From Spirochaetota bacterium (GTDB lineage: Bacteria; Spirochaetota; UBA6919; CBDBPB01): a DNA stretch of 64,000 nt. The notes beneath the pieces were generated by a model. That model had not been told where the DNA came from, made no database searches, and saw nothing but the letters and a program-made list of their open reading frames with translations. Positions 1-11,023 of the stretch are shown here, in pieces. The stretch is from the NCBI GenBank assembly GCA_965208615.1, contig CBDBPB010000007.1, positions 160,001 through 224,000 on the forward strand, in the 5' to 3' direction. A program made the translations under genes and the position numbers. Numbering within the stretch: the first letter of the stretch is position 1; each line of letters starts with the position of its first letter.

Positions 1-24
1 AACGAGTTGGATTAGTCTTTTTAT

Positions 25-432
25 TTATTTACTGGATATTTTAACATCACCGAGTACAGTAAAGTCAATACTAGTTTTGTCATCAGCTGTTTTACCAAGA
101 TTATATCCGTCATTGCTAAAGCGAGCTTGTTTTATCTCGACTTTTCTACCTTGATCGTCTGTAGCAGTGATATCACAAATTAGATCAGACAGTGTACCGT
201 CAGTTGATCCTAGTTCTTCAGCAATAATAAGTTTTTCACTTTGTTCTAAAGATATTTTACCCTTATTACTTTCCACAGCACTCGCAGTACTAACCACTTT
301 ACCATTTCTAAAAGTGTTAGCCTCTTTTAGAGTTTTTGTCCACTCAAGACTTTCGATAGTTACAGTCTGTTTTCCGTTTATGAGTACATCGGTTTTATCT
401 AAATCAAACTTTTTATATATTTGTTCAGCCAT
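25..432 (-). CDS. Putative contractile tail tube protein
   Basis: 135 aa, beta-rich, directly downstream of the sheath-like gene; strong SD AAGGAGGT. Confidence 0.65.
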   Translation of the reverse strand: MAEQIYKKFDLDKTDVLINGKQTVTIESLEWTKTLKEANTFRNGKVVSTASAVESNKGKISLEQSEKLIIAEELGSTDGTLSDLICDITATDDQGRKVEIKQARFSNDGYNLGKTADDKTSIDFTVLGDVKISSK

Positions 433-443
433 AATTCACCTCC

Positions 444-1616
444 TTAACTAAGTTTTGGCATTGCATACATTGCATCAAATGTCATACTCTCAATATGACT
501 ATTTTCATAAAGCTTAAAAGTTCCCTCTAGCTTACCCTTTATGATAAGTTCAGCCAGGTCAGCCACTGTCGTATTAGGGTTGTCAATAGCAGGTATATCA
601 ATTTCATAACCATTAATCTCATCCCTACCCATCATACCGTCTAATGCAGTCTCCATTTTAAGCTTTAGATTTAGGATACCAGCTTTAGAACCAGCTACTA
701 ACTTTGAACTTCCCTGATTAGACCTCAAAAATGGGAATACTGCATTATGTATTACTCTTAATGCCTTATCCATAACCCGTCCTGAGCTAATCTTTCTGAA
801 ATCGCTTTTTGGCGGAGCCTTTAATAAACCAATACCAAAAAATGGATATTTACCAGCGGCTTCTCCATCTTCATAATAAAGACTGTTAAAGTTTTTATCA
901 GTAAGAGCACTGTGATTATCTCTTATAACGCTGTCCCAGTCTTCAATACTAATTACGTCGTCTTGAGGGAATGCACCTGTCCATCCAATACTCTCTTGTA
1001 CCTTAGCCCTGCTTAGCGTTGCAAGAGCATGATTAGCAACACTAGTAGTCTCATTTAGTGTTTTTGACTTAACATCTTGATAGAATAAGGCTATATTCTT
1101 ACTATCAAGGCCGGCAAGATCTTTTAGCTTATCAATATTATCTTTACTCTCCACTTTATCCACACTAGCAATAGCCCTAACCCAACGCTTAGATTGACGC
1201 ATTTCCTTTATTTTAGTGTCTAGGGTTTTAAAAAAACTAGTGTCTATCTTAGGAATACTGGAATCAATAATAGGGTCTACAATGTGTATTATCCTAACTT
1301 CCTTAGCACTTTCATCATCTTTAACGGCTTTCAATGCATTAATTAAACTACCAGTATTTAGTTCATTACCCTCTAACCTAACACAATATAAGGTTGACCC
1401 CCCTAATGCAAAGTGCAATAAACATGATTTGTGTAGTGAACTATCTTTTCCATAAAGCTTTTCTGCATAGGATGCAGAAGTAACTTTTTCAACTTTACTA
1501 GTAGTAGTGTCTCCATTGTTTGCAGTACCAATCTTAGCAAAGATATTATCAGCACCTGCCACTAATGAATTACGATCACTTTCTTTAACTACAAATTTAA
1601 TTTTACTATCACTCAT
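444..1616 (-). CDS. Phage tail sheath protein (DUF2586-like)
   Basis: C-terminal SDFRKISSGRVMDKALR and ETALDGM-GEINGYEIDIP motifs resemble DUF2586-type sheaths. ATG at 1616 has SD AAGGAGGT; the ORF track start at 1640 is the alternative. Confidence 0.75.
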   Translation of the reverse strand: MSDSKIKFVVKESDRNSLVAGADNIFAKIGTANNGDTTTSKVEKVTSASYAEKLYGKDSSLHKSCLLHFALGGSTLYCVRLEGNELNTGSLINALKAVKDDESAKEVRIIHIVDPIIDSSIPKIDTSFFKTLDTKIKEMRQSKRWVRAIASVDKVESKDNIDKLKDLAGLDSKNIALFYQDVKSKTLNETTSVANHALATLSRAKVQESIGWTGAFPQDDVISIEDWDSVIRDNHSALTDKNFNSLYYEDGEAAGKYPFFGIGLLKAPPKSDFRKISSGRVMDKALRVIHNAVFPFLRSNQGSSKLVAGSKAGILNLKLKMETALDGMMGRDEINGYEIDIPAIDNPNTTVADLAELIIKGKLEGTFKLYENSHIESMTFDAMYAMPKLS

Positions 1617-1665
1617 ACTTACCTCCTTTTGTTGAGTCATAATTAAACTTTAGATTTCTTTTCAT
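1609..1665 (-). CDS. 18-aa leader peptide overlapping the sheath start (MKRNLKFNYDSTKGGKYE)
   Basis: SD AGGAGG just upstream of the ATG at 1665; its stop TGA overlaps the sheath ATGAGTGA. Confidence 0.4.
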   Translation of the reverse strand: MKRNLKFNYDSTKGGKYE

Positions 1666-1738
1666 TTTTCCTCCTGTCCACAAAATGGACTATCTATTAT
1701 TATTTTTTTAAAACGAACATTATCTGTTTTAAAACCTT

Positions 1739-2389
1739 TTACGAACTATCTTTCTTTTCATCTTTCAGGACTATTTCAAGTTTTTCCACAAGATGTATTG
1801 TCTCTTTTTCGTATATCCCTGTTTTGATAGCAAAATCCAGGATAATTTCTGTATGGCTTTTTGGAACTTCATTAGCCTTATCAGGTCTTTTTGTGTAGTG
1901 GTGATAATATCCGTGGAAGTCCCTATTACGGGTTATCGATATTATATCATAGTACCTAACTGTGCCGCTTTCTCTTTTGTGATAGGTTTTATTGTCGTGT
2001 TTTCTTTCGTATCTTAGGGATGGCGTTATATTTTCAGTAATCCTGCCTATGGTATTAGGTTCACCATATCGGTTATATAGAGCGCTGAAAAGCTTGTATA
2101 GAATATCGTCGTAGTCCTTATCTTTATTTATAATCAGCCTCAGCCTTAGGTTGTATAGAACTTCTAAAACTTGCTTTTCTACAAACTGATATTTTTTATC
2201 ATCGTCAATATCTTCAATACTTATGGGTCTAGTTTTTTGTTTAACTTTGCCATAAACGTTTAGGAACTCGGCCAAAGGACTTTTGAGATTATCATTAGAC
2301 CAATTATCCTGTTCGTGATAAAAAACATTTGCGTCTGTAAAGCCTATTTTAGTTAGCTTTTCTTTGATTAACTTTTTAACAGCCTGCAT
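1739..2389 (-). CDS. Phage protein, probable tail completion/terminator
   Basis: 216 aa, SD AGGAG, first gene of the tail operon upstream of the sheath; function assigned from position. Confidence 0.45.
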   Translation of the reverse strand: MQAVKKLIKEKLTKIGFTDANVFYHEQDNWSNDNLKSPLAEFLNVYGKVKQKTRPISIEDIDDDKKYQFVEKQVLEVLYNLRLRLIINKDKDYDDILYKLFSALYNRYGEPNTIGRITENITPSLRYERKHDNKTYHKRESGTVRYYDIISITRNRDFHGYYHHYTKRPDKANEVPKSHTEIILDFAIKTGIYEKETIHLVEKLEIVLKDEKKDSS

Positions 2390-2410
2390 ATTTTACTCCT
2401 ATTACAAAAA

Positions 2411-2471
2411 AAGTTAATACCTAAACTCTATTAGGCAAGGACAGTTATGCTATATATGCTATTTGTGCTAC
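2411..2471 (-). promoter_or_regulatory. Tail operon promoter with triple 9-bp-pitch activator repeats
   Basis: On +: GGCAAG 2434-2439 and TGCTAT/TGCTAT/TGCTAC at 2448, 2457, 2466. On -: TTGCCT-N16-TAACTT. Same repeat layout as 7913-7974. Confidence 0.6.
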
Positions 2472-2703
2472 CTATCTGAAAAAAGTTAGGAAAAAGCTGG
2501 GTATTCCATGAAAAACCTTGACTGACACAATAATGCTGAGGGTTTGGATAAAAAAATATTTTTATTTTAGCCAGAAATTGTATACCGAGAATATAAAAAA
2601 ACTAATTATTAAACAATTGCTATCTAGTTTGGCTATATGATATTATCTTTTAAAAAGAGAAGTAACTAGTCAAATCCAGCAAGTTGAGATTACTGACGTT
2701 AAA

Positions 2704-2943
2704 ATGGAAAAGCTTAAAAATGAGATAACTGGTGCTGAATCAAGGCTGAGAGTGGAGTTAAAAGCAGTCGAAAATAAAATATTAGCTGTGGAAAATAAGC
2801 TTGACAGTAAAATATCAGATGTCGAAAATAGACTTGATAATAAGATTAGTAAACTGGAAGGCATGATGAAGGTTGTTATAACGATAACATCGGCTACAGC
2901 AATAGGAATTGTCATGCTAATGCTTAAGGATATTTTTAAATAG
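2704..2943 (+). CDS. Bdr/DUF1640-like coiled-coil membrane protein, copy 1 (5'-truncated or frameshifted)
   Basis: Homology to the other copies starts at 2651; the ATG at 2637 is out of frame by one T of a T4 run. Confidence 0.6.
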   Translation: MEKLKNEITGAESRLRVELKAVENKILAVENKLDSKISDVENRLDNKISKLEGMMKVVITITSATAIGIVMLMLKDIFK

Positions 2944-2980
2944 CCCGCTTGACAGTGCTATACCTCAAAAGGAGAGAAAT

Positions 2981-3301
2981 ATGATAACGGATGACCTAAG
3001 ACAGGAGATAAAAAGAGAAGTAACTAGTCAAATCCAGCAAGTTGAGATTACTGACGTTAAAATGGAAAAGCTTAAAAATGAGATAACTGGTGCTGAATCA
3101 AGGCTGAGAGTGGAGTTAAAAGCAGTCGAAAATAAAATATTAGCTGTGGAAAATAAGCTTGACAGTAAAATATCAGACGTGGAAAATAGACTTGATAATA
3201 AGATTAGTAAGCTGGAAGGCATGATGAAGGTTATTATAACGATAACATCGGCTACAGCAATAGGAATTGTCATGCTAATGCTTAAGGATATTTTTAAATA
3301 G
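2981..3301 (+). CDS. Bdr/DUF1640-like coiled-coil protein with C-terminal TM anchor, copy 2 (106 aa)
   Basis: SD AAGGAG; KISDVENRLD-type repeats; hydrophobic C-terminus VIITITSATAIGIVMLML. Confidence 0.85.
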   Translation: MITDDLRQEIKREVTSQIQQVEITDVKMEKLKNEITGAESRLRVELKAVENKILAVENKLDSKISDVENRLDNKISKLEGMMKVIITITSATAIGIVMLMLKDIFK

Positions 3302-3338
3302 CCCGCTTGACAGTGCTATACCTCAAAAGGAGAGAAAT

Positions 3339-3659
3339 ATGATAACGGATGACCTAAGACAGGAGATAAAAAGAGAAGTAACTAGTCAAATCCAGCAAGT
3401 TGAGATTACTGACGTTAAAATGGAAAAGCTTAAAAATGAGATAACTGGTGCTGAATCAAGGCTGAGAGTGGAGTTAAAAGCAGTCGAAAATAAAATATTA
3501 GCTGTGGAAAATAAGCTTGACAGTAAAATATCAGATGTCGAAAATAGACTTGATAATAAGATTAGTAAACTGGAAGGCATGATGAAGGTTGTTATAACGA
3601 TAACATCGGCTACAGCAATAGGAATTGTCATGTTAATGCTTAAGGATATTTTTAAATAG
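3339..3659 (+). CDS. Bdr/DUF1640-like protein, copy 3 (106 aa)
   Basis: Same architecture as copy 2. Confidence 0.85.
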   Translation: MITDDLRQEIKREVTSQIQQVEITDVKMEKLKNEITGAESRLRVELKAVENKILAVENKLDSKISDVENRLDNKISKLEGMMKVVITITSATAIGIVMLMLKDIFK

Positions 3660-3696
3660 CCCGTTTAGCAGTGCTATACCTCAAAAGGAGAGAAAT

Positions 3697-3963
3697 ATGA
3701 TAACGGATGACCTAAGACAGGAGATAAAAAGAGAAGTAACTAGTCAAATCCAGCAAGTTGAGATTACTGACGTTAAAATGGAAAAGCTTAAAAACGAGAT
3801 AACTGGTGCTGAATCGAGGCTGAGGCTGGAGTTAAAAGAAGTGGAAAATAGACTTGATAATAAGATTAGTAAACTGGAAGGTATGATGAAGGTTATTATA
3901 ACGATAACATCGGCTACAGCAATAGGAATTGTCATGTTAATGCTTAAGGATATTTTTAAATAG
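3697..3963 (+). CDS. Bdr/DUF1640-like protein, copy 4 (88 aa, shortest stalk)
   Basis: Same as copy 2 without the extra modules. Confidence 0.85.
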   Translation: MITDDLRQEIKREVTSQIQQVEITDVKMEKLKNEITGAESRLRLELKEVENRLDNKISKLEGMMKVIITITSATAIGIVMLMLKDIFK

Positions 3964-4000
3964 CCCGCTTAGCAGTGCTATACCTCAAAAGGAGAGAAAT

Positions 4001-4366
4001 ATGATAACGGATGACCTAAGACAGGAGATAAAAAGAGAAGTAACTAGTCAAATCCAGCAGTCTGAGATTACTGACGTTAAAATGGAAAAGCTTAAAAATG
4101 AGATAACTGGTGCTGAATCAAGGCTGAGAGTGGAGTTAAAAGCAGTCGAAAATAGACTTGATAATAAAATATCAGACGTGGAAAATAGACTTGACAGTAA
4201 AATATCAGACGTGGAAAATAAGCTTGATAATAAAATATCAGACGTGGAAAACAGGCTTGATAATAAGATTAGTAAGCTGGAAGGTATGATGAAGGTTATT
4301 ATAACGATAACATCGGCTACAGCAATAGGAATTGTCATGTTAATGCTTAAGGATATTTTTAAATAG
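4001..4366 (+). CDS. Bdr/DUF1640-like protein, copy 5 (121 aa)
   Basis: 88 aa plus 3x11 aa. Confidence 0.85.
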   Translation: MITDDLRQEIKREVTSQIQQSEITDVKMEKLKNEITGAESRLRVELKAVENRLDNKISDVENRLDSKISDVENKLDNKISDVENRLDNKISKLEGMMKVIITITSATAIGIVMLMLKDIFK

Positions 4367-4403
4367 CCCGCTTAGCAGTGCTATACCTCAAAAGGAGAGA
4401 AAT

Positions 4404-4757
4404 ATGATAACGGATGACCTAAGACAGGAGATAAAAAGAGAAGTAACTAGTCAAATCCAGCAAGTTGAGATTACTGACGTTAAAATGGAAAAGCTTAAAA
4501 ATGAGATAACTGGTGCTGAATCAAGGCTGAGAGTGGAGTTAAAAGCAGTCGAAAATAAAATATTAGCTGTGGAAAATAGACTTGACAGTAAAATATCAGA
4601 CGTGGAAAATAAGCTTGATAGTAAAATATCAGATGTCGAAAATAGACTTGATAATAAGATTAGTAAACTGGAAGGTATGATGAAGGTTATTATAACGATA
4701 ACATCGGCTACAGCAATAGGAATTGTCATGTTAATGCTTAAGGATATTTTTAAATAG
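4404..4757 (+). CDS. Bdr/DUF1640-like protein, copy 6 (117 aa)
   Basis: 88 aa plus 7 plus 2x11 aa. Confidence 0.85.
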   Translation: MITDDLRQEIKREVTSQIQQVEITDVKMEKLKNEITGAESRLRVELKAVENKILAVENRLDSKISDVENKLDSKISDVENRLDNKISKLEGMMKVIITITSATAIGIVMLMLKDIFK

Positions 4758-4794
4758 CCCGCTTGACAGTGCTATACCTCAAAAGGAGAGAAAT

Positions 4795-5193
4795 ATGATA
4801 ACGGATGACCTAAGACAGGAGATAAAAAGAGAAGTAACTAGTCAAATCCAGCAGTCTGAGATTACGGATGTTAAAATGGAAAAGCTTAAAAATGAGATAA
4901 CTGGTGCTGAATCGAGGCTGAGAGTGGAGTTAAAAGAAGTCGAAAATAGACTTGATAATAAAATATCAGATGTCGAAAATAAGCTTGGCAGTAAAATATC
5001 AGATGTCGAAAATAAGCTTGACAGTAAAATATCAGATGTCGAAAATAAGCTTGACAGTAAAATATCAGATGTCGAAAATAGACTTGATAATAAGATTAGT
5101 AAACTGGAAGGTATGATGAAGGTTATTATAACGATAACATCGGCTACAGCGATAGGAATTGTCATGCTAATGCTTAAGGATATTTTTAAATAG
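4795..5193 (+). CDS. Bdr/DUF1640-like protein, copy 7 (132 aa)
   Basis: 88 aa plus 4x11 aa. Confidence 0.85.
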   Translation: MITDDLRQEIKREVTSQIQQSEITDVKMEKLKNEITGAESRLRVELKEVENRLDNKISDVENKLGSKISDVENKLDSKISDVENKLDSKISDVENRLDNKISKLEGMMKVIITITSATAIGIVMLMLKDIFK

Positions 5194-5227
5194 TACTATG
5201 AGCCTGCATTAAACCTGTAAATACATA

Positions 5228-5740
5228 TTATAAACTATATCCAATGCCGACTAACCAATAAAAATCCCCTTTATGTTTATATATATACTCATATCCCCCT
5301 GTCAGGAAGAAGTTAAAGCTTTTCAAAGCCTTAAAAGGACTAATACGTACAGAGGCCTCTGTTCTAAGTTTGTCATTGCTTACTCCAAAATTAATGGACA
5401 TGCTTATCCATTTGTGAGCAAACTTTTTATTTCTTAACTTTTCGTATTCCTTTATCCAAAAGGTTTGCTTATCCAGACTGTTGTTTAGCTTAGTCCTTAC
5501 AGCAATAAGCTCATTAGTAATCTCTATACTCTGCTTTAGCAAAGCCTTATACCTTTTTCTGAGATTATAATTAACCTGCCTTAGCTCTATTATAACCCTA
5601 TTGGCATCCTCAAGTCCTTTATACAGGTCTATAGCGGCCTTTTTGTGATTGTTTTCATTATTTGCCTGTGCTATAGTGCTTATAACGCTCAAGGAGATTA
5701 TTAATATCCACTTTAGAGCGAACTTTTTTATTTTTCTCAA
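5228..5740 (-). CDS. Exported coiled-coil protein with C-terminal beta-strand anchor; candidate outer-membrane spanin subunit
   Basis: Signal peptide ending AQA, coiled coil, about 4 amphipathic strands ending VGIGYSL; last gene of the lysis cassette. Confidence 0.5.
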   Translation of the reverse strand: MRKIKKFALKWILIISLSVISTIAQANNENNHKKAAIDLYKGLEDANRVIIELRQVNYNLRKRYKALLKQSIEITNELIAVRTKLNNSLDKQTFWIKEYEKLRNKKFAHKWISMSINFGVSNDKLRTEASVRISPFKALKSFNFFLTGGYEYIYKHKGDFYWLVGIGYSL

Positions 5741-5939
5741 ACTCTATTTCCTCTTTTTTAAGTTCATTTAGCTTTATTTTAATGGTTTTGATTTTTGAGT
5801 TATTATCTTTTTTATTTTTTTTAATTTCTTTTTTTCTTTCTATAAGATTATGCCAATTTAACTGGCTGTTCTTGTTTACCATAAAGAAAATAGCAATAGC
5901 TATTATAATAGCTATTGCGATAATTATAAGTTTTTTCAT
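5658..5939 (-). CDS. N-terminal TM plus coiled coil; candidate inner-membrane spanin
   Basis: MKKLIIIAIAIIIAIAIFF anchor, Lys-rich helix; overlaps the next gene by 83 nt. Confidence 0.5.
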   Translation of the reverse strand: MKKLIIIAIAIIIAIAIFFMVNKNSQLNWHNLIERKKEIKKNKKDNNSKIKTIKIKLNELKKEEIEFEKNKKVRSKVDINNLLERYKHYSTGK

Positions 5940-5954
5940 TGTACTAGCCTATTG

Positions 5955-6062
5955 TTATCCAGCGTATAGTAATAGTACAGCTAAACAAATAGCACCTATG
6001 GTAAGGGCTATTATTTTCCAATGTTTAGCTAGTTGACCAAGTATTGTCTTGACGCTTGTCAT
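5955..6062 (-). CDS. 35-aa single-TM peptide (MTSVKTILGQLAKHWKIIALTIGAICLAVLLLYAG)
   Basis: Read manually; fills the gap in the operon; below the ORF-track size cutoff. Confidence 0.45.
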   Translation of the reverse strand: MTSVKTILGQLAKHWKIIALTIGAICLAVLLLYAG

Positions 6063-6318
6063 AGTTTTTACTCCTTAAATTAAAAGTTAGATTTTCTATA
6101 AAACTATCCTTATTCTTCATAGAGAATTTTCTTAGATAGAAGTCGAAAAACTCGAAAGAACCATCTTTATCCGCAGAAAAATATTTACTATTATTCTTCC
6201 AGACATCTTTTTCATGACCCCCGAATTCTGACCACTTTTTTATTAGAGTGTTCTTAGCTTTTTTGAGATTTTCATTGTACCACAAAAATTCACTTTTAAA
6301 GCTTAATTTTTTAGCCAT
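6025..6318 (-). CDS. Hypothetical phage protein
   Basis: SD GAGGT; abuts the upstream gene and shares a KKWxE...W helix motif with it. Confidence 0.6.
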   Translation of the reverse strand: MAKKLSFKSEFLWYNENLKKAKNTLIKKWSEFGGHEKDVWKNNSKYFSADKDGSFEFFDFYLRKFSMKNKDSFIENLTFNLRSKNYDKRQDNTWSTS

Positions 6319-6741
6319 TTATAACCACCTCATAGTTTTTCTATCCTTATATTTTAGTGATGACCCAGAAGTTAGACCAGTTGGTTTAACATTAGTTCCG
6401 AGTTTTGATGTATAAGCTGTCATAAAGTATGTTAAAAACAGCAAATACGTACTCACTGACCTACCGAGGGAGCTTTCCAGTTGTTTAGCTCTATCTTGCC
6501 AAGATTTCAGCTGTTCCTTAGTTATTTTAAGCTCATCCCATTTTTTAACTACGATAGAAAAGGCAATTTGGATGTTCTTATGCCTAATGTCGTTCATTTT
6601 AGTTTTGGTGTATTTTCTAATGTATACGTTACTTCTAAGGATAGAGTCGTCAACCATCTCTTTTTTAGTTTTTACGTATACGATATTCCCCACTCTACCG
6701 CTTATAGCAGAGACTGGGTAAGCTAATTGTATTTTAGCCAT
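6319..6741 (-). CDS. Basic hypothetical phage protein (ISGRVGNIVY motif, possibly DUF6266-like)
   Basis: SD AGGAGG; 140 aa; family assignment tentative. Confidence 0.6.
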   Translation of the reverse strand: MAKIQLAYPVSAISGRVGNIVYVKTKKEMVDDSILRSNVYIRKYTKTKMNDIRHKNIQIAFSIVVKKWDELKITKEQLKSWQDRAKQLESSLGRSVSTYLLFLTYFMTAYTSKLGTNVKPTGLTSGSSLKYKDRKTMRWL

Positions 6742-6919
6742 ATATATCCTCCTATATTTTTTTTAGAATAACCTTTTTATAAGGTTATTAAGATCCTTAT
6801 TTAATAAGGCAGTGTTAAGTTTTTTAGTCTTACTGGGATATCGTCTAATATATAGTTTATTTTTTCTATTTACTAGTACGAACTTTCTTATATCGTTTTT
6901 GTTGAATGCAAACTCTATA

Positions 6920-7132
6920 CTAGCCATTATTGCTGTCCCTATTATCTAAATAGCTGTTTAATCCGTTGTGAGCCACATTACCCACGATATAACTAGCGCC
7001 AATGACCTCCACAACATCCACCCAGTTATCGCTATTTATTATATTATTCATAAGCAGTATGGTAGCGGATATTATAATTATAATAGTTACAATGAACTTT
7101 CTGCTTATGATAGAGCCAATTTTTTTATTCAT
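6920..7132 (-). CDS. Putative holin
   Basis: 70 aa, SRKF motif followed by two hydrophobic segments; overlaps the endolysin stop. Confidence 0.65.
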   Translation of the reverse strand: MNKKIGSIISRKFIVTIIIIISATILLMNNIINSDNWVDVVEVIGASYIVGNVAHNGLNSYLDNRDSNNG

Positions 7133-7590
7133 AGATAATTATTAGGCATAATGCCTTCCCAGAGTTTATAAGACCTCTTATTTTTTATGGGATAGCTTAC
7201 CATTAAGACTTTCCCGCCATAATCTTTATAATTTCTGTCTATGTGGAACCAAGGAATGCCGTCTATTCTGCCATTCCACTCCATAATAACTCTAAAACCG
7301 TTATTGGTGCTGAATTGGAACCAGTTCATAGATAATTTATATAATTTTATATTGTCCTCATAGAATTGTATATCTATAGCCTTACCCAGCCCGTGCGACC
7401 CCTTATCCTTTGGCCTATAGGTGCTATTAATCCTAATAGGTTCTTTTATGTATGACCTCAATTTTTGTATTAGTTCCATAGTGTGTATGAGGTTTCTTTT
7501 AATTTTGCCTGGCAGTTCCAGCCAATTATACGGGCAGTCATCAAGATTAGGGTTAACTATTTCGTTTATGGTAAAGTTAGTCCAATTCAT
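7129..7590 (-). CDS. Endolysin, peptidase M15A family
   Basis: INSTYR, SHGLGKAIDI and WFHID Zn-peptidase motifs. Confidence 0.85.
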   Translation of the reverse strand: MNWTNFTINEIVNPNLDDCPYNWLELPGKIKRNLIHTMELIQKLRSYIKEPIRINSTYRPKDKGSHGLGKAIDIQFYEDNIKLYKLSMNWFQFSTNNGFRVIMEWNGRIDGIPWFHIDRNYKDYGGKVLMVSYPIKNKRSYKLWEGIMPNNYL

Positions 7591-7874
7591 TTAAGAGCCT
7601 CTTTTGCGAACCATGCAATAAGTGCTAAACAGCCGGTTAACAATCCCCCTAATACTATTTCCATAATGCGTTTCCCCGCAGTCCTTGTATTAGTAAGGGT
7701 ATTAAGAGCTATACTATGTTCGTCGAGTTTTTTAAGAATTTCGTTATCAGTTATTTTTTGCTCGTTTACAGCCAGTTTAACATATTGCAAATCTTTTTTA
7801 ATTTCAGTTTGTCCAATTTGTAATAGTTTTATATCTTTTTCAGCTTCTTTTAGCCTTTCTTCAGGATCAGTCAT
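7587..7874 (-). CDS. Coiled coil plus C-terminal TM protein (XhlA/holin-like)
   Basis: First gene of the lysis operon; 4-nt overlap with the endolysin start. Confidence 0.6.
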   Translation of the reverse strand: MTDPEERLKEAEKDIKLLQIGQTEIKKDLQYVKLAVNEQKITDNEILKKLDEHSIALNTLTNTRTAGKRIMEIVLGGLLTGCLALIAWFAKEALK

Positions 7875-7912
7875 TTTGGAACCTTTATTTTTAAATATTT
7901 TTTACTATTGCA

Positions 7913-7974
7913 AATATATGTTCAGAAAAGCAATACGGCAAGTCTAAGAATGCTATAACTGCTATAAATGCTAT
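7913..7974 (-). promoter_or_regulatory. Lysis operon promoter with triple 9-bp-pitch activator repeats
   Basis: On +: GGCAAG 7937-7942 and TGCTAT at 7951, 7960, 7969. On -: TTGCCG-N17-TATATT. Confidence 0.65.
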
Positions 7975-8053
7975 TAGTGTTATTCTTTTTTAAAAAAGCC
8001 ATTATTTTACGGAATAGCTATAAGATAACTATTGGCATTTCGTTAATTCATTT

Positions 8054-8239
8054 ATGGCAAACAAAAAGGAACTTTTAACAATAAAAGAGGCAGAGCTGAA
8101 GTACAGGATAGGGCGTAATACTTTATACAGTCTATATGAAGATGGGCTGATTAAGGGTTATAAGCCGGGCAAAAAGAAGATTTTTCTTTATAAGGATAGC
8201 ATAGAAAAATATTTGTTAGGCAAGTCGAACATAAATTGA
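8054..8239 (+). CDS. Excisionase/MerR-like winged-helix DNA-binding protein
   Basis: LLTIKEA-IGRNTLY-GLIKGYK-IFLYKDSIEKYL pattern, 61 aa. Confidence 0.85.
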   Translation: MANKKELLTIKEAELKYRIGRNTLYSLYEDGLIKGYKPGKKKIFLYKDSIEKYLLGKSNIN

Positions 8240-8322
8240 CAATAGTTGTCATTTTCTTCATTTTTTTATTACGAATCTTTTTCTTAAAGATTCGTATATA
8301 AGCTAGTTAAACTTTATTTTTT

Positions 8323-8354
8323 AATAAAGCCCCTCTATATAGAGGGGTTTTATT
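8323..8354. terminator. Bidirectional intrinsic terminator
   Basis: aataaagcccctct-atat-agaggggttttatt between convergent genes. Confidence 0.75.
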
Positions 8355-8612
8355 TTATTAAGGAAAGTATAAATTGTTAATTACAAGGCATTTATAATAT
8401 ATACTTTATAGCAGTTATGCAAAAACAGCTCTCACTCTTTAGAGCAGGAGTTTAATCAAAAAGACAAAAAAACTAAAGAAATCATTTTTATATAAACAAG
8501 CAAATTTACAGCCGTATTCTTTCAAAAAATAGCTCCCTCTCCCAGAGGATTAGGAGCTTATGTGTCAAGTAATGCAGAGTTTTTTTTATAAATTTAGTAA
8601 TATTTCTAACTG

Positions 8613-9041
8613 CTAAGCGAGTTTTAGCATTACATCTATTTGTTTTTTATCGGCATTTTGTTCTTCTTTTTTATAGTGTAGAAAAAGGTTTACAATTTGC
8701 TCAGCCTTTTTCATTGGATCAATTTTAGCATTTAATTCTACGCATGCTTTTTCGGATAAATATATAATTTCAGTGAGTAAATCTATATCATTATTGTCAA
8801 TTTCATTATTTTCTTCATTGACAGCAAACATGGTACCAGAGCCAGTTAGGAGCCAATTTATACTTACGTTATATGTTTTTATGAGGTCAGCAAGCTGATG
8901 GAAGTTTAAGACACTTTCTCCACGTTCAACTCTGCTCAAGAAAGTCTGTTTTACCTTTATAGCATTGGCAACTTCTTCTTGTTTTATGTTTAGCATTTTT
9001 CTAAAATATTTAATTCTGTATCCTGGGTTCATACTATGCAC
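8613..9041 (-). CDS. XRE/CI-like repressor
   Basis: RIKYFR-QEEVA-QTFLSRVERG-NVSINWLLTGSGTM HTH signature. Confidence 0.9.
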   Translation of the reverse strand: MHSMNPGYRIKYFRKMLNIKQEEVANAIKVKQTFLSRVERGESVLNFHQLADLIKTYNVSINWLLTGSGTMFAVNEENNEIDNNDIDLLTEIIYLSEKACVELNAKIDPMKKAEQIVNLFLHYKKEEQNADKKQIDVMLKLA

Positions 9042-9080
9042 TCAAAATGTAAAAAAAAAAGAATTTATACACAAAATCCC

Positions 9081-9139
9081 TTGACTTTTAGAACTTAAAG
9101 TTATATATTAACAACTTCTTAAGCTTTAGAAATTTAAGG
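9081..9139 (+). promoter_or_regulatory. Early promoter with two candidate operators
   Basis: TTGACT-N17-TATATT (9081-9109); related imperfect palindromes CTTTTAGAACTTAAAG (9085) and CTTTAGAAATTTAAGG (9124). Confidence 0.6.
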
Positions 9140-9150
9140 TCTAAAATAAC

Positions 9151-9184
9151 TTCTCATTATGTAATCTAATTCTCATTATGTAAT
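9151..9184 (+). repeat. 15-bp direct repeat x2 (ttctcattatgtaat)
   Basis: Copies at 9151 and 9170. Confidence 0.8.
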
Positions 9185-9243
9185 GTAACCTAATATGCCA
9201 GAAAAGCAAGTTATTTTTTTTAAAAATAAAATATGGAGGTTAT

Positions 9244-9339
9244 ATGAGTTTTTATAGCTATAAAAAATATAAGAATACAAAGGGCAAAAAGTGTATTAAC
9301 CATAAGATATTACTAATTTTAATCATGCTTGTAATCTAA
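9244..9339 (+). CDS. 31-aa basic peptide with hydrophobic C-terminus
   Basis: SD GGAGGT, then MSFYSYKKYKNTKGKKCINHKILLILIMLVI; read manually. Confidence 0.35.
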   Translation: MSFYSYKKYKNTKGKKCINHKILLILIMLVI

Positions 9340-9354
9340 TATATTTTTTTAACC

Positions 9355-9774
9355 ATGTTTTACCAATTAAAACTAAAAAAAACTAAAATATTAAAAAAAT
9401 ATAACCTAATCAGCTTGCTACAAAAAGAATTAGGTTTATCCGCCAGTAGCTGTTATAAATTTCTTTTAAAAAAAGAATCTATAGGTTTTCTGAAAAAGAA
9501 AAACCTCTTAAACAAAGAAATCGAAATCTTGAACACTCCAATATTAAAAGAAGGATCTCTTAAAAAACAGGAGCGTAGCTTTTTAACTATTTGTCTTATG
9601 GATTTGTTAAACAATAATCCAAAGATTTTCTCTAAAGAAGAGTGGAAGAGACTTATAAAAATACGCCTTAGAAGGGCTAACCTTAAATATGATAGTAAAA
9701 TAGATGATTGCTCAGAAAAAGAACTACACGAGCTTTCTGAAAAGCTTTATCTAAAAGGATATAAAGGAGAATAA
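9355..9774 (+). CDS. Hypothetical phage early protein
   Basis: 139 aa basic ORF coupled to the next gene. Confidence 0.5.
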   Translation: MFYQLKLKKTKILKKYNLISLLQKELGLSASSCYKFLLKKESIGFLKKKNLLNKEIEILNTPILKEGSLKKQERSFLTICLMDLLNNNPKIFSKEEWKRLIKIRLRRANLKYDSKIDDCSEKELHELSEKLYLKGYKGE

Positions 9775-9775
9775 C

Positions 9776-10627
9776 ATGGAAAATGATACTGTGAATAACG
9801 GTTTAATAGTAGACGGCCTTATAGAAGGCGTTATGGAAGAGGATATTACAGATGATATAACGGAGAGTTCTATTGAGGAACAGGCAAAGCATACTATAAA
9901 AGATAGCCTAACGGATGGTTTAGTGTTCCATCCTGATAAAACTGCGGGAATAATAAGGGAACTCCATGCTAAAACGCTACTCAGCATTCTCGAAATTGGA
10001 AGGCATTTACTGGTCGCCAAAGAGCGTCTTAATCACGGTGAGTTCGGCCGCTGGATAGAGGATCGATGCGGATTTTCTTATAGCACGGCTAGGAGCTATA
10101 TGCAGATGACCAAGATAGGCTATCTACATAAAAATGAGATAGTTAACATGAAGGCAAGTGCATTTAGGTCAATAGCGAAGGGCAAACTGCCCCCTGATCT
10201 TTTTGGTGAGGTCATGAAAACGGGTATGATAAACGATAAGGAGATTTCTAATATGTCTACAAAAGAGATTGAAAATGAGATTGAAAAATTAAAATCCGAG
10301 ATTGACAAAGAGATAGACAGGCGTATGGATGCTGAAAAGACTTTGGAGATCAGTAAAAACATCTTAGAGGAAAAGGATAAGGAAATATCTAGCCTGGAAA
10401 GCAAGCTGGATAAGCTAAAGAGCCCTGATAAGCAATACGAACTCCACTTTGAACAAACTCAGGATATTATATCCGAGGCGATTTTTAACGTCCAAAAGGC
10501 GAGTTTAAAGTCTCCAAAGCCTAATGACGCTCTTAGTCTTCTGTCTTCCTTAATCATAGCGACAAACAGGCTGGGGGAAGAGTGGGGCGTTAAATGGGAC
10601 GATAAAAGTTTTATAAGCAGAAATTAA
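9776..10627 (+). CDS. DUF3102-like phage protein with coiled coil
   Basis: EIGRHLLVAKERLNHGEFGRWIE-FSYSTARSYM motif. Confidence 0.8.
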   Translation: MENDTVNNGLIVDGLIEGVMEEDITDDITESSIEEQAKHTIKDSLTDGLVFHPDKTAGIIRELHAKTLLSILEIGRHLLVAKERLNHGEFGRWIEDRCGFSYSTARSYMQMTKIGYLHKNEIVNMKASAFRSIAKGKLPPDLFGEVMKTGMINDKEISNMSTKEIENEIEKLKSEIDKEIDRRMDAEKTLEISKNILEEKDKEISSLESKLDKLKSPDKQYELHFEQTQDIISEAIFNVQKASLKSPKPNDALSLLSSLIIATNRLGEEWGVKWDDKSFISRN

Positions 10628-10654
10628 GTGTTAAAAGGGTTATAAGGGGTTATT

Positions 10655-11023
10655 ATGCCTATGATGAACTCTATAACCAGCAAGCAAATAGCCAAAATAT
10701 GGTCTTATTCCAATGAGCTTGGCCTAAGCCTGGGTGAGTTGCATAATATAGTAAATACCTTCTTCAGAAAGCCTCTAAGACAGCTATCCGAGGAGGAGGC
10801 ACATAGGCTTATGACATTATTATCTAAATATAGAAAGCCTAATAAGATAGTTAATTTAATTAGTCCCACACAAAGAAAAAGGATACTCAATCTTAAGTCC
10901 AGCCTTAGCTGGACAGAGAATGAGCTAAACTGCTTCTCTATAAAGCTGACTGGTAAACCTTATAGTAAGCTTACCCAAGAGAAGGCATATAGACTAATAA
11001 AAGGTTTAAAATCTTTGTTTTAA
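10655..11023 (+). CDS. Mu GemA/gp16 (DUF1018)-like regulatory protein
   Basis: ITSKQIAKIW-LGL-LRQLSEEEAHRLM unit duplicated as ISPTQRKRI-LTQEKAYRLIKGLK. Confidence 0.7.
   Translation: MPMMNSITSKQIAKIWSYSNELGLSLGELHNIVNTFFRKPLRQLSEEEAHRLMTLLSKYRKPNKIVNLISPTQRKRILNLKSSLSWTENELNCFSIKLTGKPYSKLTQEKAYRLIKGLKSLF

Follow-up and report, generated by a model that had tools for sequence, protein, structure and literature searches.

The closest described relatives of the genes reported here are the Bdr proteins of the Lyme and relapsing-fever spirochaetes and the DUF1640 proteins, which include mitochondrial MCUR1 and CCDC90B; both families are widespread and have no agreed function. Bdr proteins are described as inner-membrane associated and of unknown function in the accessible part of one report (PMC10016077), and in the accessible part of Casjens et al. 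(PMC3303823) bdr genes are counted among the "lysogenic conversion" genes of cp32, with repeat numbers that differ between strains. MCUR1 is divided into head, neck, stalk and anchor in the available section of a review (PMC8224590). Here we report a tandem array of genes for small, membrane-anchored coiled-coil proteins in a stretch of 64,000 nucleotides from a Spirochaetota bacterium (genome G000, contig 7 (C7), 160001-224000; the window, whose numbering is used for coordinates throughout). The observation is real and unusual: the array encodes a head-less stalk-anchor family that resembles the known Bdr and DUF1640 proteins and is probably a distant relative of both.

An earlier note on this DNA had described a seven-gene array. 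Seven tandem units were found head-to-tail at window 2637-5193 on the + strand, and six of them have intact open reading frames (ORFs) of the lengths given in that note; the first unit is 5'-degenerate, and to this extent the description had to be corrected. The array is made up as follows (intact copies from the ORF listing and the module split, spacers from sequence comparison).

2617..2646, + strand, promoter-like site TTGCTA-18-TATTAT with TG, upstream of and overlapping copy 1 (consensus scan, 9/12 matches)
2637..2943, + strand, copy 1, 5'-degenerate, with a stalk identical in make-up to that of the 106-aa copies
2981..3301, + strand, copy 2, 106 aa, heptad module and one hendecad module
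3339..3659, + strand, copy 3, 106 aa, heptad module and one hendecad module
3697..3963, + strand, copy 4, 88 aa, zero extra modules
4001..4366, + strand, copy 5, 121 aa, three hendecad modules
4404..4757, + strand, copy 6, 117 aa, heptad module and two hendecad modules
4795..5193, + strand, copy 7, 132 aa, four hendecad modules
2944-2980, 3302-3338, 3660-3696, 3964-4000, 4367-4403 and 4758-4794, + strand, six 37-bp spacers

Every spacer contains the Shine-Dalgarno sequence AAAGGAGAG 7 nt before the ATG, and spacers differ from each other at 1-3 positions, in agreement with the near identity claimed before. Tandem Repeats Finder detected a 358-bp period at 2651-3850 (97% matches, score 2302) and a 403-bp period at 3837-5054 (93% matches) with 33-bp repeats nested inside; the tandem repetition is far beyond chance. 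In copy 1, homology to the other units begins at 2651; a small part of its 5' region has been exchanged for other sequence, which puts the ATG at 2637 in a different frame from the remainder. The first in-frame ATG of this copy (2704) opens a frame of 79 aa without a Shine-Dalgarno site. A perfect TTGACA is also present in three of the six spacers, and TTAGCA occupies the corresponding position in the remaining three; a matching −10 element was not found at the right distance from them, and they are therefore probably not internal promoters.

Each protein could be split into a constant 47-aa N-terminal part, "AV" or "EV", zero or one ENKILAV, zero to four EN(K/R)LD(S/N)KISDV and a constant 39-aa C-terminal part, the two modules being encoded by 21 nt and 33 nt, respectively. 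The intact copies in order are 88 plus 18, 18, 0, 33, 29 and 44 residues, and the 7- and 11-residue arithmetic proposed earlier is exact. The six intact copies have five distinct lengths, which do not change monotonically along the array. When 12 nt (the codons for LDSK) are taken out of the 33-nt module, 18 of 21 positions are identical to the 21-nt module; the latter thus appears to be the 33-nt module after loss of 12 nt, in other words a hendecad minus a four-residue "stutter". Hydrophobic residues of the stalk are spaced 4-4-3 without a break up to the anchor, and the heptad module gives 4-3, which bears out the expectation that heptads and hendecads keep the coiled-coil register. The 4-4-3 spacing agrees with the 11/3 periodicity that an eLife paper assigns to hendecad coiled coils (PMC4786415).

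With moderate confidence, we favour the reading that the array encodes six (perhaps seven) lineage-specific, tail-anchored hendecad rods, that it lies in a defective Mu-like prophage and that it was formed by unequal crossing-over and slippage. Each protein would be one long alpha-helix consisting of a charged, conserved N-terminal segment of about 47 residues, a hendecad stalk and a C-terminal anchor. Adlakha and colleagues are said to have found in 2019 that DUF1640 proteins are trimers; the array helices would form parallel rods that are straight or have a slight right-handed twist and, by analogy, are probably trimeric. The rods would be anchored in the cytoplasmic membrane with the soluble part pointing into the cytoplasm, where the conserved N-terminal segment could hold a partner at a set distance, as a membrane scaffold. 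The array would have arisen from unequal crossing-over of a 358-bp unit (gene plus 37-bp spacer), lengths would be altered by in-frame gain and loss of 33-nt repeats, and the copies would keep exchanging sequence; the spread of lengths would most simply be a by-product of this mutational mechanism. Situated at the head-gene site of the prophage and divergent from the tail genes, the array would be prophage cargo, probably a single operon whose expression does not depend on the late genes; the description of Borrelia bdr as lysogenic-conversion genes of cp32 prophages is similar.

The lengths themselves could instead have been selected, with rods of discrete lengths that set the N-terminal segment at stepwise distances from the membrane, or form length-sorted homo-oligomers with different partners. 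We regard such a set of rulers, in which steps of about 1.0 and 1.6 nm would cover a range of about 6.5 nm, as unlikely. Five lengths among six intact copies, all in register, speak for it; the copies have also persisted to a synonymous divergence (dS) of up to 0.17 with their constant parts under purifying selection, and the stalk length of MCUR1, a DUF1640 member, is reported to matter for partner interaction in the review (PMC8224590). However, the 7/11 arithmetic is the necessary outcome of slippage among DNA repeats of 21 and 33 nt, and slippage of the 33-nt repeat yields such lengths without selection. As the DNA repeat is also the structural repeat, lengths that preserve the register arise automatically, and by themselves they are no proof of selection for rulers or for length diversity. 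Moreover, two intact copies and the degenerate copy share one length, and the dispersed paralogues described below vary as well (77-110 aa) without forming an array.

The structure of the 106-aa copy 2 was predicted with AlphaFold2 using a 13-row family alignment. The model is one continuous helix from residue 4 to residue 105 with a mean predicted local distance difference test (pLDDT) score of 95.3, and by this model the array proteins are without a separate globular head domain. The most hydrophobic 19-residue window, KV(I/V)ITITSATAIGIVMLML, has a Kyte-Doolittle mean of 2.0 and lies five residues from the C-terminus, so that the transmembrane segment is followed by KDIFK. The soluble part comprises 64-108 residues, about 10-16 nm as a helix, with 26-45 charged residues. 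Since there is no signal peptide and the layout is that of a tail-anchored protein, the N-terminus is probably cytoplasmic. An exported N-terminal rod that spans the periplasm and sets a distance there is very improbable. The charges flanking the anchor, which are equal on both sides (+2/−1 each), are compatible with export, and spirochaetes have a structured periplasm; but a signal peptide is missing, the 26-45 charges make membrane crossing of the soluble part unlikely, and proteins anchored at the C-terminus usually have a cytoplasmic N-terminus. A phage i-spanin (Rz-like) or a holin was also considered and rejected: i-spanins combine an N-terminal transmembrane segment with a periplasmic coiled coil, and in holins one to three transmembrane segments make up most of a small protein, whereas the sole hydrophobic segment of the array proteins is C-terminal and they matched no PHROG lysis family.

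Relatives of the family were sought at several scales, and it proved nearly unique to this genome. A word-indexed search of 5.8 billion clusters returned 7 matches, all from this genome, and a profile search of 1.84 billion representatives returned one match below 1e-10 (the genome's own paralogue) together with 52 marginal ones (5e-7 to 1e-3). When 46 of the 52 were scanned against Pfam, six proteins of 320-3006 aa being left out, 15 of the 46 passed the gathering cut-off of the DUF1640 profile PF07798 (33.5 bits; profile length 175) and 21 matched it at E<1e-5. The same cut-off was passed in 6 of 151 sampled genomes of the phylum, a sample that includes G000, and the best match in a PF07798 scan of the whole genome G000 had 20.7 bits. 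With the family profile, matches were found in 6 of 400 other genomes of the phylum (best E 3e-7), the best one being a 125-aa DUF1640-type protein with five 11-residue repeats. The family alignment (A1) was compared with 16 DUF1640-like proteins by hhalign and gave 98.2% and E 5.8e-14 over 61 columns (query 42-102), which cover stalk and anchor. An unrelated tail-anchored coiled coil of the same element, used as negative control, gave 0.1%; architecture alone therefore does not yield a DUF1640 match.

Both families have a stalk of hendecad repeats and a single C-terminal transmembrane helix, and prokaryotic DUF1640 members have the same kind of 11-residue repeats, e.g. P0034 with VEQKLDSKIDSVEQKL. 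The array proteins differ in the absence of the head domain, as judged from Pfam coverage, hhalign and the AlphaFold2 monomer: PF07798 matches on them span only profile positions 61-173 or 86-164, and the head region (about 1-60) is uncovered. They had been described as head-stalk-anchor proteins; the stalk and the C-terminal hydrophobic anchor were recovered and the head was not. At the start of the DUF1640 stalk, a beta-layer motif [aliphatic]-A-T-K-[polar]-[DE] is given in the eLife 2016 paper (PMC4786415). By inspection, A-T-K does not occur in alignment A1, which has a nearly invariant E-I-T-D-x-K instead; this may be a remnant of the beta-layer or unrelated to it.

The resemblance to Bdr proteins was recovered by tblastn against 72,556 plasmids. 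The 132-aa copy matched 386 records, 361 of which are bdr of Borrelia/Borreliella, and the 106-aa copy matched 51 records, 50 of them from Borrelia. The best pairwise match, to a Bdr protein of B. miyamotoi, has 36 of 92 positions identical (39%, E 6e-13) and includes part of the N-terminal region, and hhalign of the family against Bdr gave 88.8%. Shared features are a spirochaete host, a multi-copy paralogous family with variable repeat number, a C-terminal hydrophobic anchor, a position beside phage genes and central 11-residue repeats that are much alike (ENKLDSKISDV in the array, ...LDNKIDSVEN... in Bdr), though the array repeats that align to those of Bdr read K-I-S and not K-I-D. PF02524 (KID repeat) was not reported on the copies at E<=0.1, and a true Bdr itself scored 17.2 bits against a cut-off of 20.8. 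The family differs from Bdr in having no Bdr N-terminal head, in being shorter (77-132 aa versus 135-323 aa in the Bdr examples compared), in being chromosomal whereas Bdr is on plasmids, and in its strict head-to-tail series of seven, whereas on B. turicatae lp48 unrelated genes separate the bdr genes observed. Beside phage genes, we also observed a Bdr-type gene that matches the family profile 27 bp downstream of a terminase large subunit gene (L028:1387-3179, genome G219), and one next to a tape-measure gene on the opposite strand (L035:4914-9444, B. miyamotoi lp70).

Bdr proteins (A2/A3; L016, L028, L035) were in turn aligned with the DUF1640-like set at 99.5% over 170 columns, from head to anchor, and scored 21-24 bits on PF07798, which is below its cut-off. 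This profile comparison links Bdr to DUF1640 over the whole length; our literature search returned no paper containing both names. The simplest picture from these alignments would be one superfamily (DUF1640 including Bdr) with the array family as a head-less offshoot. The similarity to Bdr and DUF1640/CCDC90 pointed out in the earlier note was thus found by Pfam, tblastn and hhalign, though below the family cut-offs. Its remark that such relatives are dispersed and not tandem held in the examples compared, with the addition that dispersed copies, six in number and including two pairs, occur in this genome as well.

The array lies in an element that covers window 1-11023 and G000:C7:139500-160000. 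A sister prophage at 425-460 kb of the same contig (G000:C7:425000-460000) is complete and transposable (Mu-like); by their PHROG names, its genes include those for a transposase, a DNA transposition protein, terminase, portal and minor head protein, protease, major head protein and tape measure. The features next to the array are as follows.

1640..5208, no strand, element-specific segment (216-aa gene plus array) without counterpart in the complete sister prophage (tblastx synteny)
1739..2389, − strand, gene for a protein of 216 aa without a family match, oriented away from the array
5228..5740, − strand, signal-peptide-like protein of 170 aa, running towards the array (stops 35 bp apart), last of the lysis-side block

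To the left of the array, the 216-aa gene is accompanied on the − strand by a tail sheath gene (PHROG 907, DUF2586) and a tube-sized gene, and before the window start by baseplate hub, wedge and tail-fibre genes. To the right lie the genes of the 170-aa protein, an Rz-like protein, an M15-type endolysin, a helix-turn-helix (HTH) protein and a cI-like repressor. Tail and lysis genes are on the − strand, and the array is on the strand opposite to them, as had been claimed. The sister's sheath is 71% identical to that of the window, and the 170-aa protein has 86-93% amino acid identity to the sister's copy. By tblastx the two elements are collinear, the window's element being without the sister's transposition genes and without its head-module segment at 439.2-447.6 kb; window 1640-5208 stands at the position of the sister's terminase, portal, protease and capsid genes. 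The 216-aa gene aligned to the sister's gene just upstream of the sheath with 42% identity over 26 aa (E 0.25) and is probably its divergent counterpart; if so, the array alone replaces the head genes. As a tape measure was not recognisable in the window's element, we call it a defective prophage and not a tailocin. Sheath, tube, baseplate, fibres, lysis genes and repressor are kept in it, and three of its fibre-like genes share an N-terminus. The element also encodes a 95-aa protein (7587-7874, − strand) that begins with a coiled coil and ends in a hydrophobic segment; its gene directly precedes the endolysin gene and overlaps it. The protein shares 89% identity with the sister's copy, matched no family and could be a membrane protein involved in lysis. 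As a relative of the array proteins it was rejected (hhalign 0.1%, unrelated).

Like prophage "morons" or lysogenic-conversion genes, the array is a small, independently oriented block between late-gene modules; it differs from them in that its paralogues also occur outside prophages and the element is defective. The array could be a phage-facing moron expressed in the lysogen, acting in superinfection exclusion at the inner membrane or modulating the neighbouring lysis cassette. Its position between lysis and tail genes on the opposite strand would fit, as would the Bdr-type genes that adjoin phage genes in Borreliaceae (B. miyamotoi lp70; genome G219) and the listing of bdr among cp32 lysogenic-conversion genes (PMC3303823). 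We nevertheless consider such a function improbable: the complete sister prophage has no such gene, six paralogues are in housekeeping operons, and the array proteins matched no PHROG family of known function, giving weak coiled-coil-type matches only. To our knowledge, no exclusion or lysis role has been described for Bdr or DUF1640.

The genome (2.46 Mb, 9 contigs, 99.4% complete) contains 18 matches to the family, corresponding to 13 genes, namely the seven array units and six dispersed paralogues, which are distributed as follows.

C1, dispersed adjacent pair, 77 and 95 aa
C2, dispersed paralogue, 110 aa
C4, dispersed pair C4a/C4b, 106 and 95 aa, about 850 bp apart
C5, dispersed paralogue, 95 aa

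Their lengths of 77-110 aa fit 77 + 7a + 11b. The paralogues are co-directional members of ordinary operons. Their putative neighbours, named from the translations, are pstB- and phoU-like genes on either side, tsaE- and thiF-like genes on either side, or gyrA/parC-like and clpC-like genes downstream. Mobile cassettes were considered for the dispersed copies and rejected, the flanks sharing just a Shine-Dalgarno-like stretch, apart from locally duplicated flanks shared within the C4 and C1 pairs. One C1 paralogue (G000:C1:279788-280075, − strand) has ATA at the start position and is a pseudogene or has an unusual start.

Selection was assessed by Nei-Gojobori counts over the 73 codons common to all copies. 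Within the array, pairs differ by 1-7 synonymous versus 0-3 non-synonymous changes (dS 0.02-0.17; ratio of non-synonymous to synonymous divergence, dN/dS, 0-0.25). Between loci dS is 0.14 (C4a-C4b), 0.45 and up to saturation, with dN/dS of 0.07-0.37, or 0.07-0.22 without C4a-C4b. These are therefore real coding genes under purifying selection, and the nearly saturated synonymous differences from locus to locus show the family to be old in the lineage. Judged from the sequences, the array would be younger than the family, or exchange would keep its copies alike. All four combinations of tail sites 2 and 41 occur among the copies, and this mosaic indicates recombination among them.

Several points weigh against the reading of tail-anchored cytoplasmic rods carried as prophage cargo. 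The array proteins score below the PF07798 cut-off, with 24.1 bits (132 aa), 18.1 bits (106 aa) and 17.3 bits (88 aa). NF040499 (Bdr_N_group1; cut-off 40 bits), the profile of the 52-residue N-terminal Bdr head, gave 94.1-98.1 bits on three Borrelia Bdr proteins and no match (E<=1) to the 88-, 106- and 132-aa copies and the genome's paralogues P0006 and P0007, nor (E<=0.01) to the 117- and 121-aa copies. Likeness between repetitive coiled coils can moreover be convergent. We infer oligomer state, topology and membrane insertion of the array proteins alike, and the equal charges around the anchor leave the topology undecided under the positive-inside rule. Concerning expression, the promoter-like site at 2617..2646 is a consensus match with no evidence of function, a terminator-like site was not found in 2300-5400, and there was no RNA run among the public runs listed for the stretch. 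With six paralogues in ordinary operons the family is not phage-specific, and the role of "prophage cargo" may be incidental. Finally, the single public run that contains the stretch (X1) consists of short contigs, none of which spans the array, and several array bins are uncovered in it.

The copy number comes solely from the assembly, and the last point bears on whether alleles of one or two genes from mixed strains could have been strung together during assembly. The low depth of the sole public run with the stretch, and its lack of a contig across the array, would allow for this. We hold such an artefact to be highly unlikely in view of six exact 37-bp spacers, seven in-frame units, five lengths among the six intact copies and unique combinations of single-nucleotide polymorphisms (SNPs), in a genome of few contigs and high completeness; assemblers also collapse such repeats rather than expand them. 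In run X1 one contig runs from the left flank into unit 1 and another from the last unit into the right flank. The depth is 12-17 for repeat pieces versus 3-5 for the unique flanks, 3-4 times as much. The raised depth points to multi-copy DNA, but does not establish seven copies. Runs X2 and X3 contain next to nothing of the array. From X3, which is another sample of the same study, a 151-nt contig resembles the C2-type paralogue (letters for …VKITFENR…) and matches window 3203-3285 and 4137-4176; it contains next to none of the array's words, and a related organism may be present in that sample.

A broader proposal can be put forward, which we consider quite unlikely as a whole: Bdr-like stalk-anchor proteins would be an old, recurrent cargo of spirochaete prophages, and the array would be a one-operon length series with steps of 7 and 11 residues that sets graded distances, carried by a Mu-like element that has lost its head and transposition genes. 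If true, it would give a first handle on the role of the Bdr/DUF1640 stalk as distance-setting at the membrane. The locus appears to be a minimal, head-less version consisting of stalk and anchor, and would widen the range of Bdr-like proteins to include a distant lineage of spirochaetes, where phage genes are once more the neighbours. Its main value lies in the six natural length variants, probably of one operon, which form a ready series for testing the effect of stalk length.

Outside this genome the tandem form was not met in the samples covered. The survey of related genomes suggested earlier gave no second array: in the matches listed from 150 further genomes of the phylum, PF07798 matches in separate ORFs were never neighbours, and no related locus was confirmed in scans of genome, metagenome and viral contigs. 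A match on a Thermus plasmid is a single gene. The survey is a small sample, and such arrays may exist elsewhere; no description of a tandem ladder of such genes was found in the literature covered, which mostly excludes subscription journals. Solved structures gave three weak sequence matches, the best being the coiled coil of reovirus sigma-1 (E 0.0024), and NCBIfam gave weak, sub-threshold matches of coiled-coil type, none near its cut-off. The sole sequence outside this genome with the family-specific motifs (…TDIKVEKLRNEI…ISKIEGMVKVIV…) is P0018, a 99-aa hypothetical singleton from a 2,565-bp metagenome contig, with E 3e-5 and a different N-terminus.

The host is a deep-branching spirochaete, and no other genome of the species set belongs to its family or genus. 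FlaA, the flagellar sheath protein of spirochaetes, gave 8 matches in its genome versus none in 14 control genomes. Antisense ORFs of 63-107 aa, rich in S, L, F and I, run through every copy (window 2670-5165, − strand) and every dispersed paralogue. They were rejected as genes: shuffles of synonymous codons reach the observed open length in 22-70% of trials across all 12 genes, and the antisense ORFs are therefore explained by composition.

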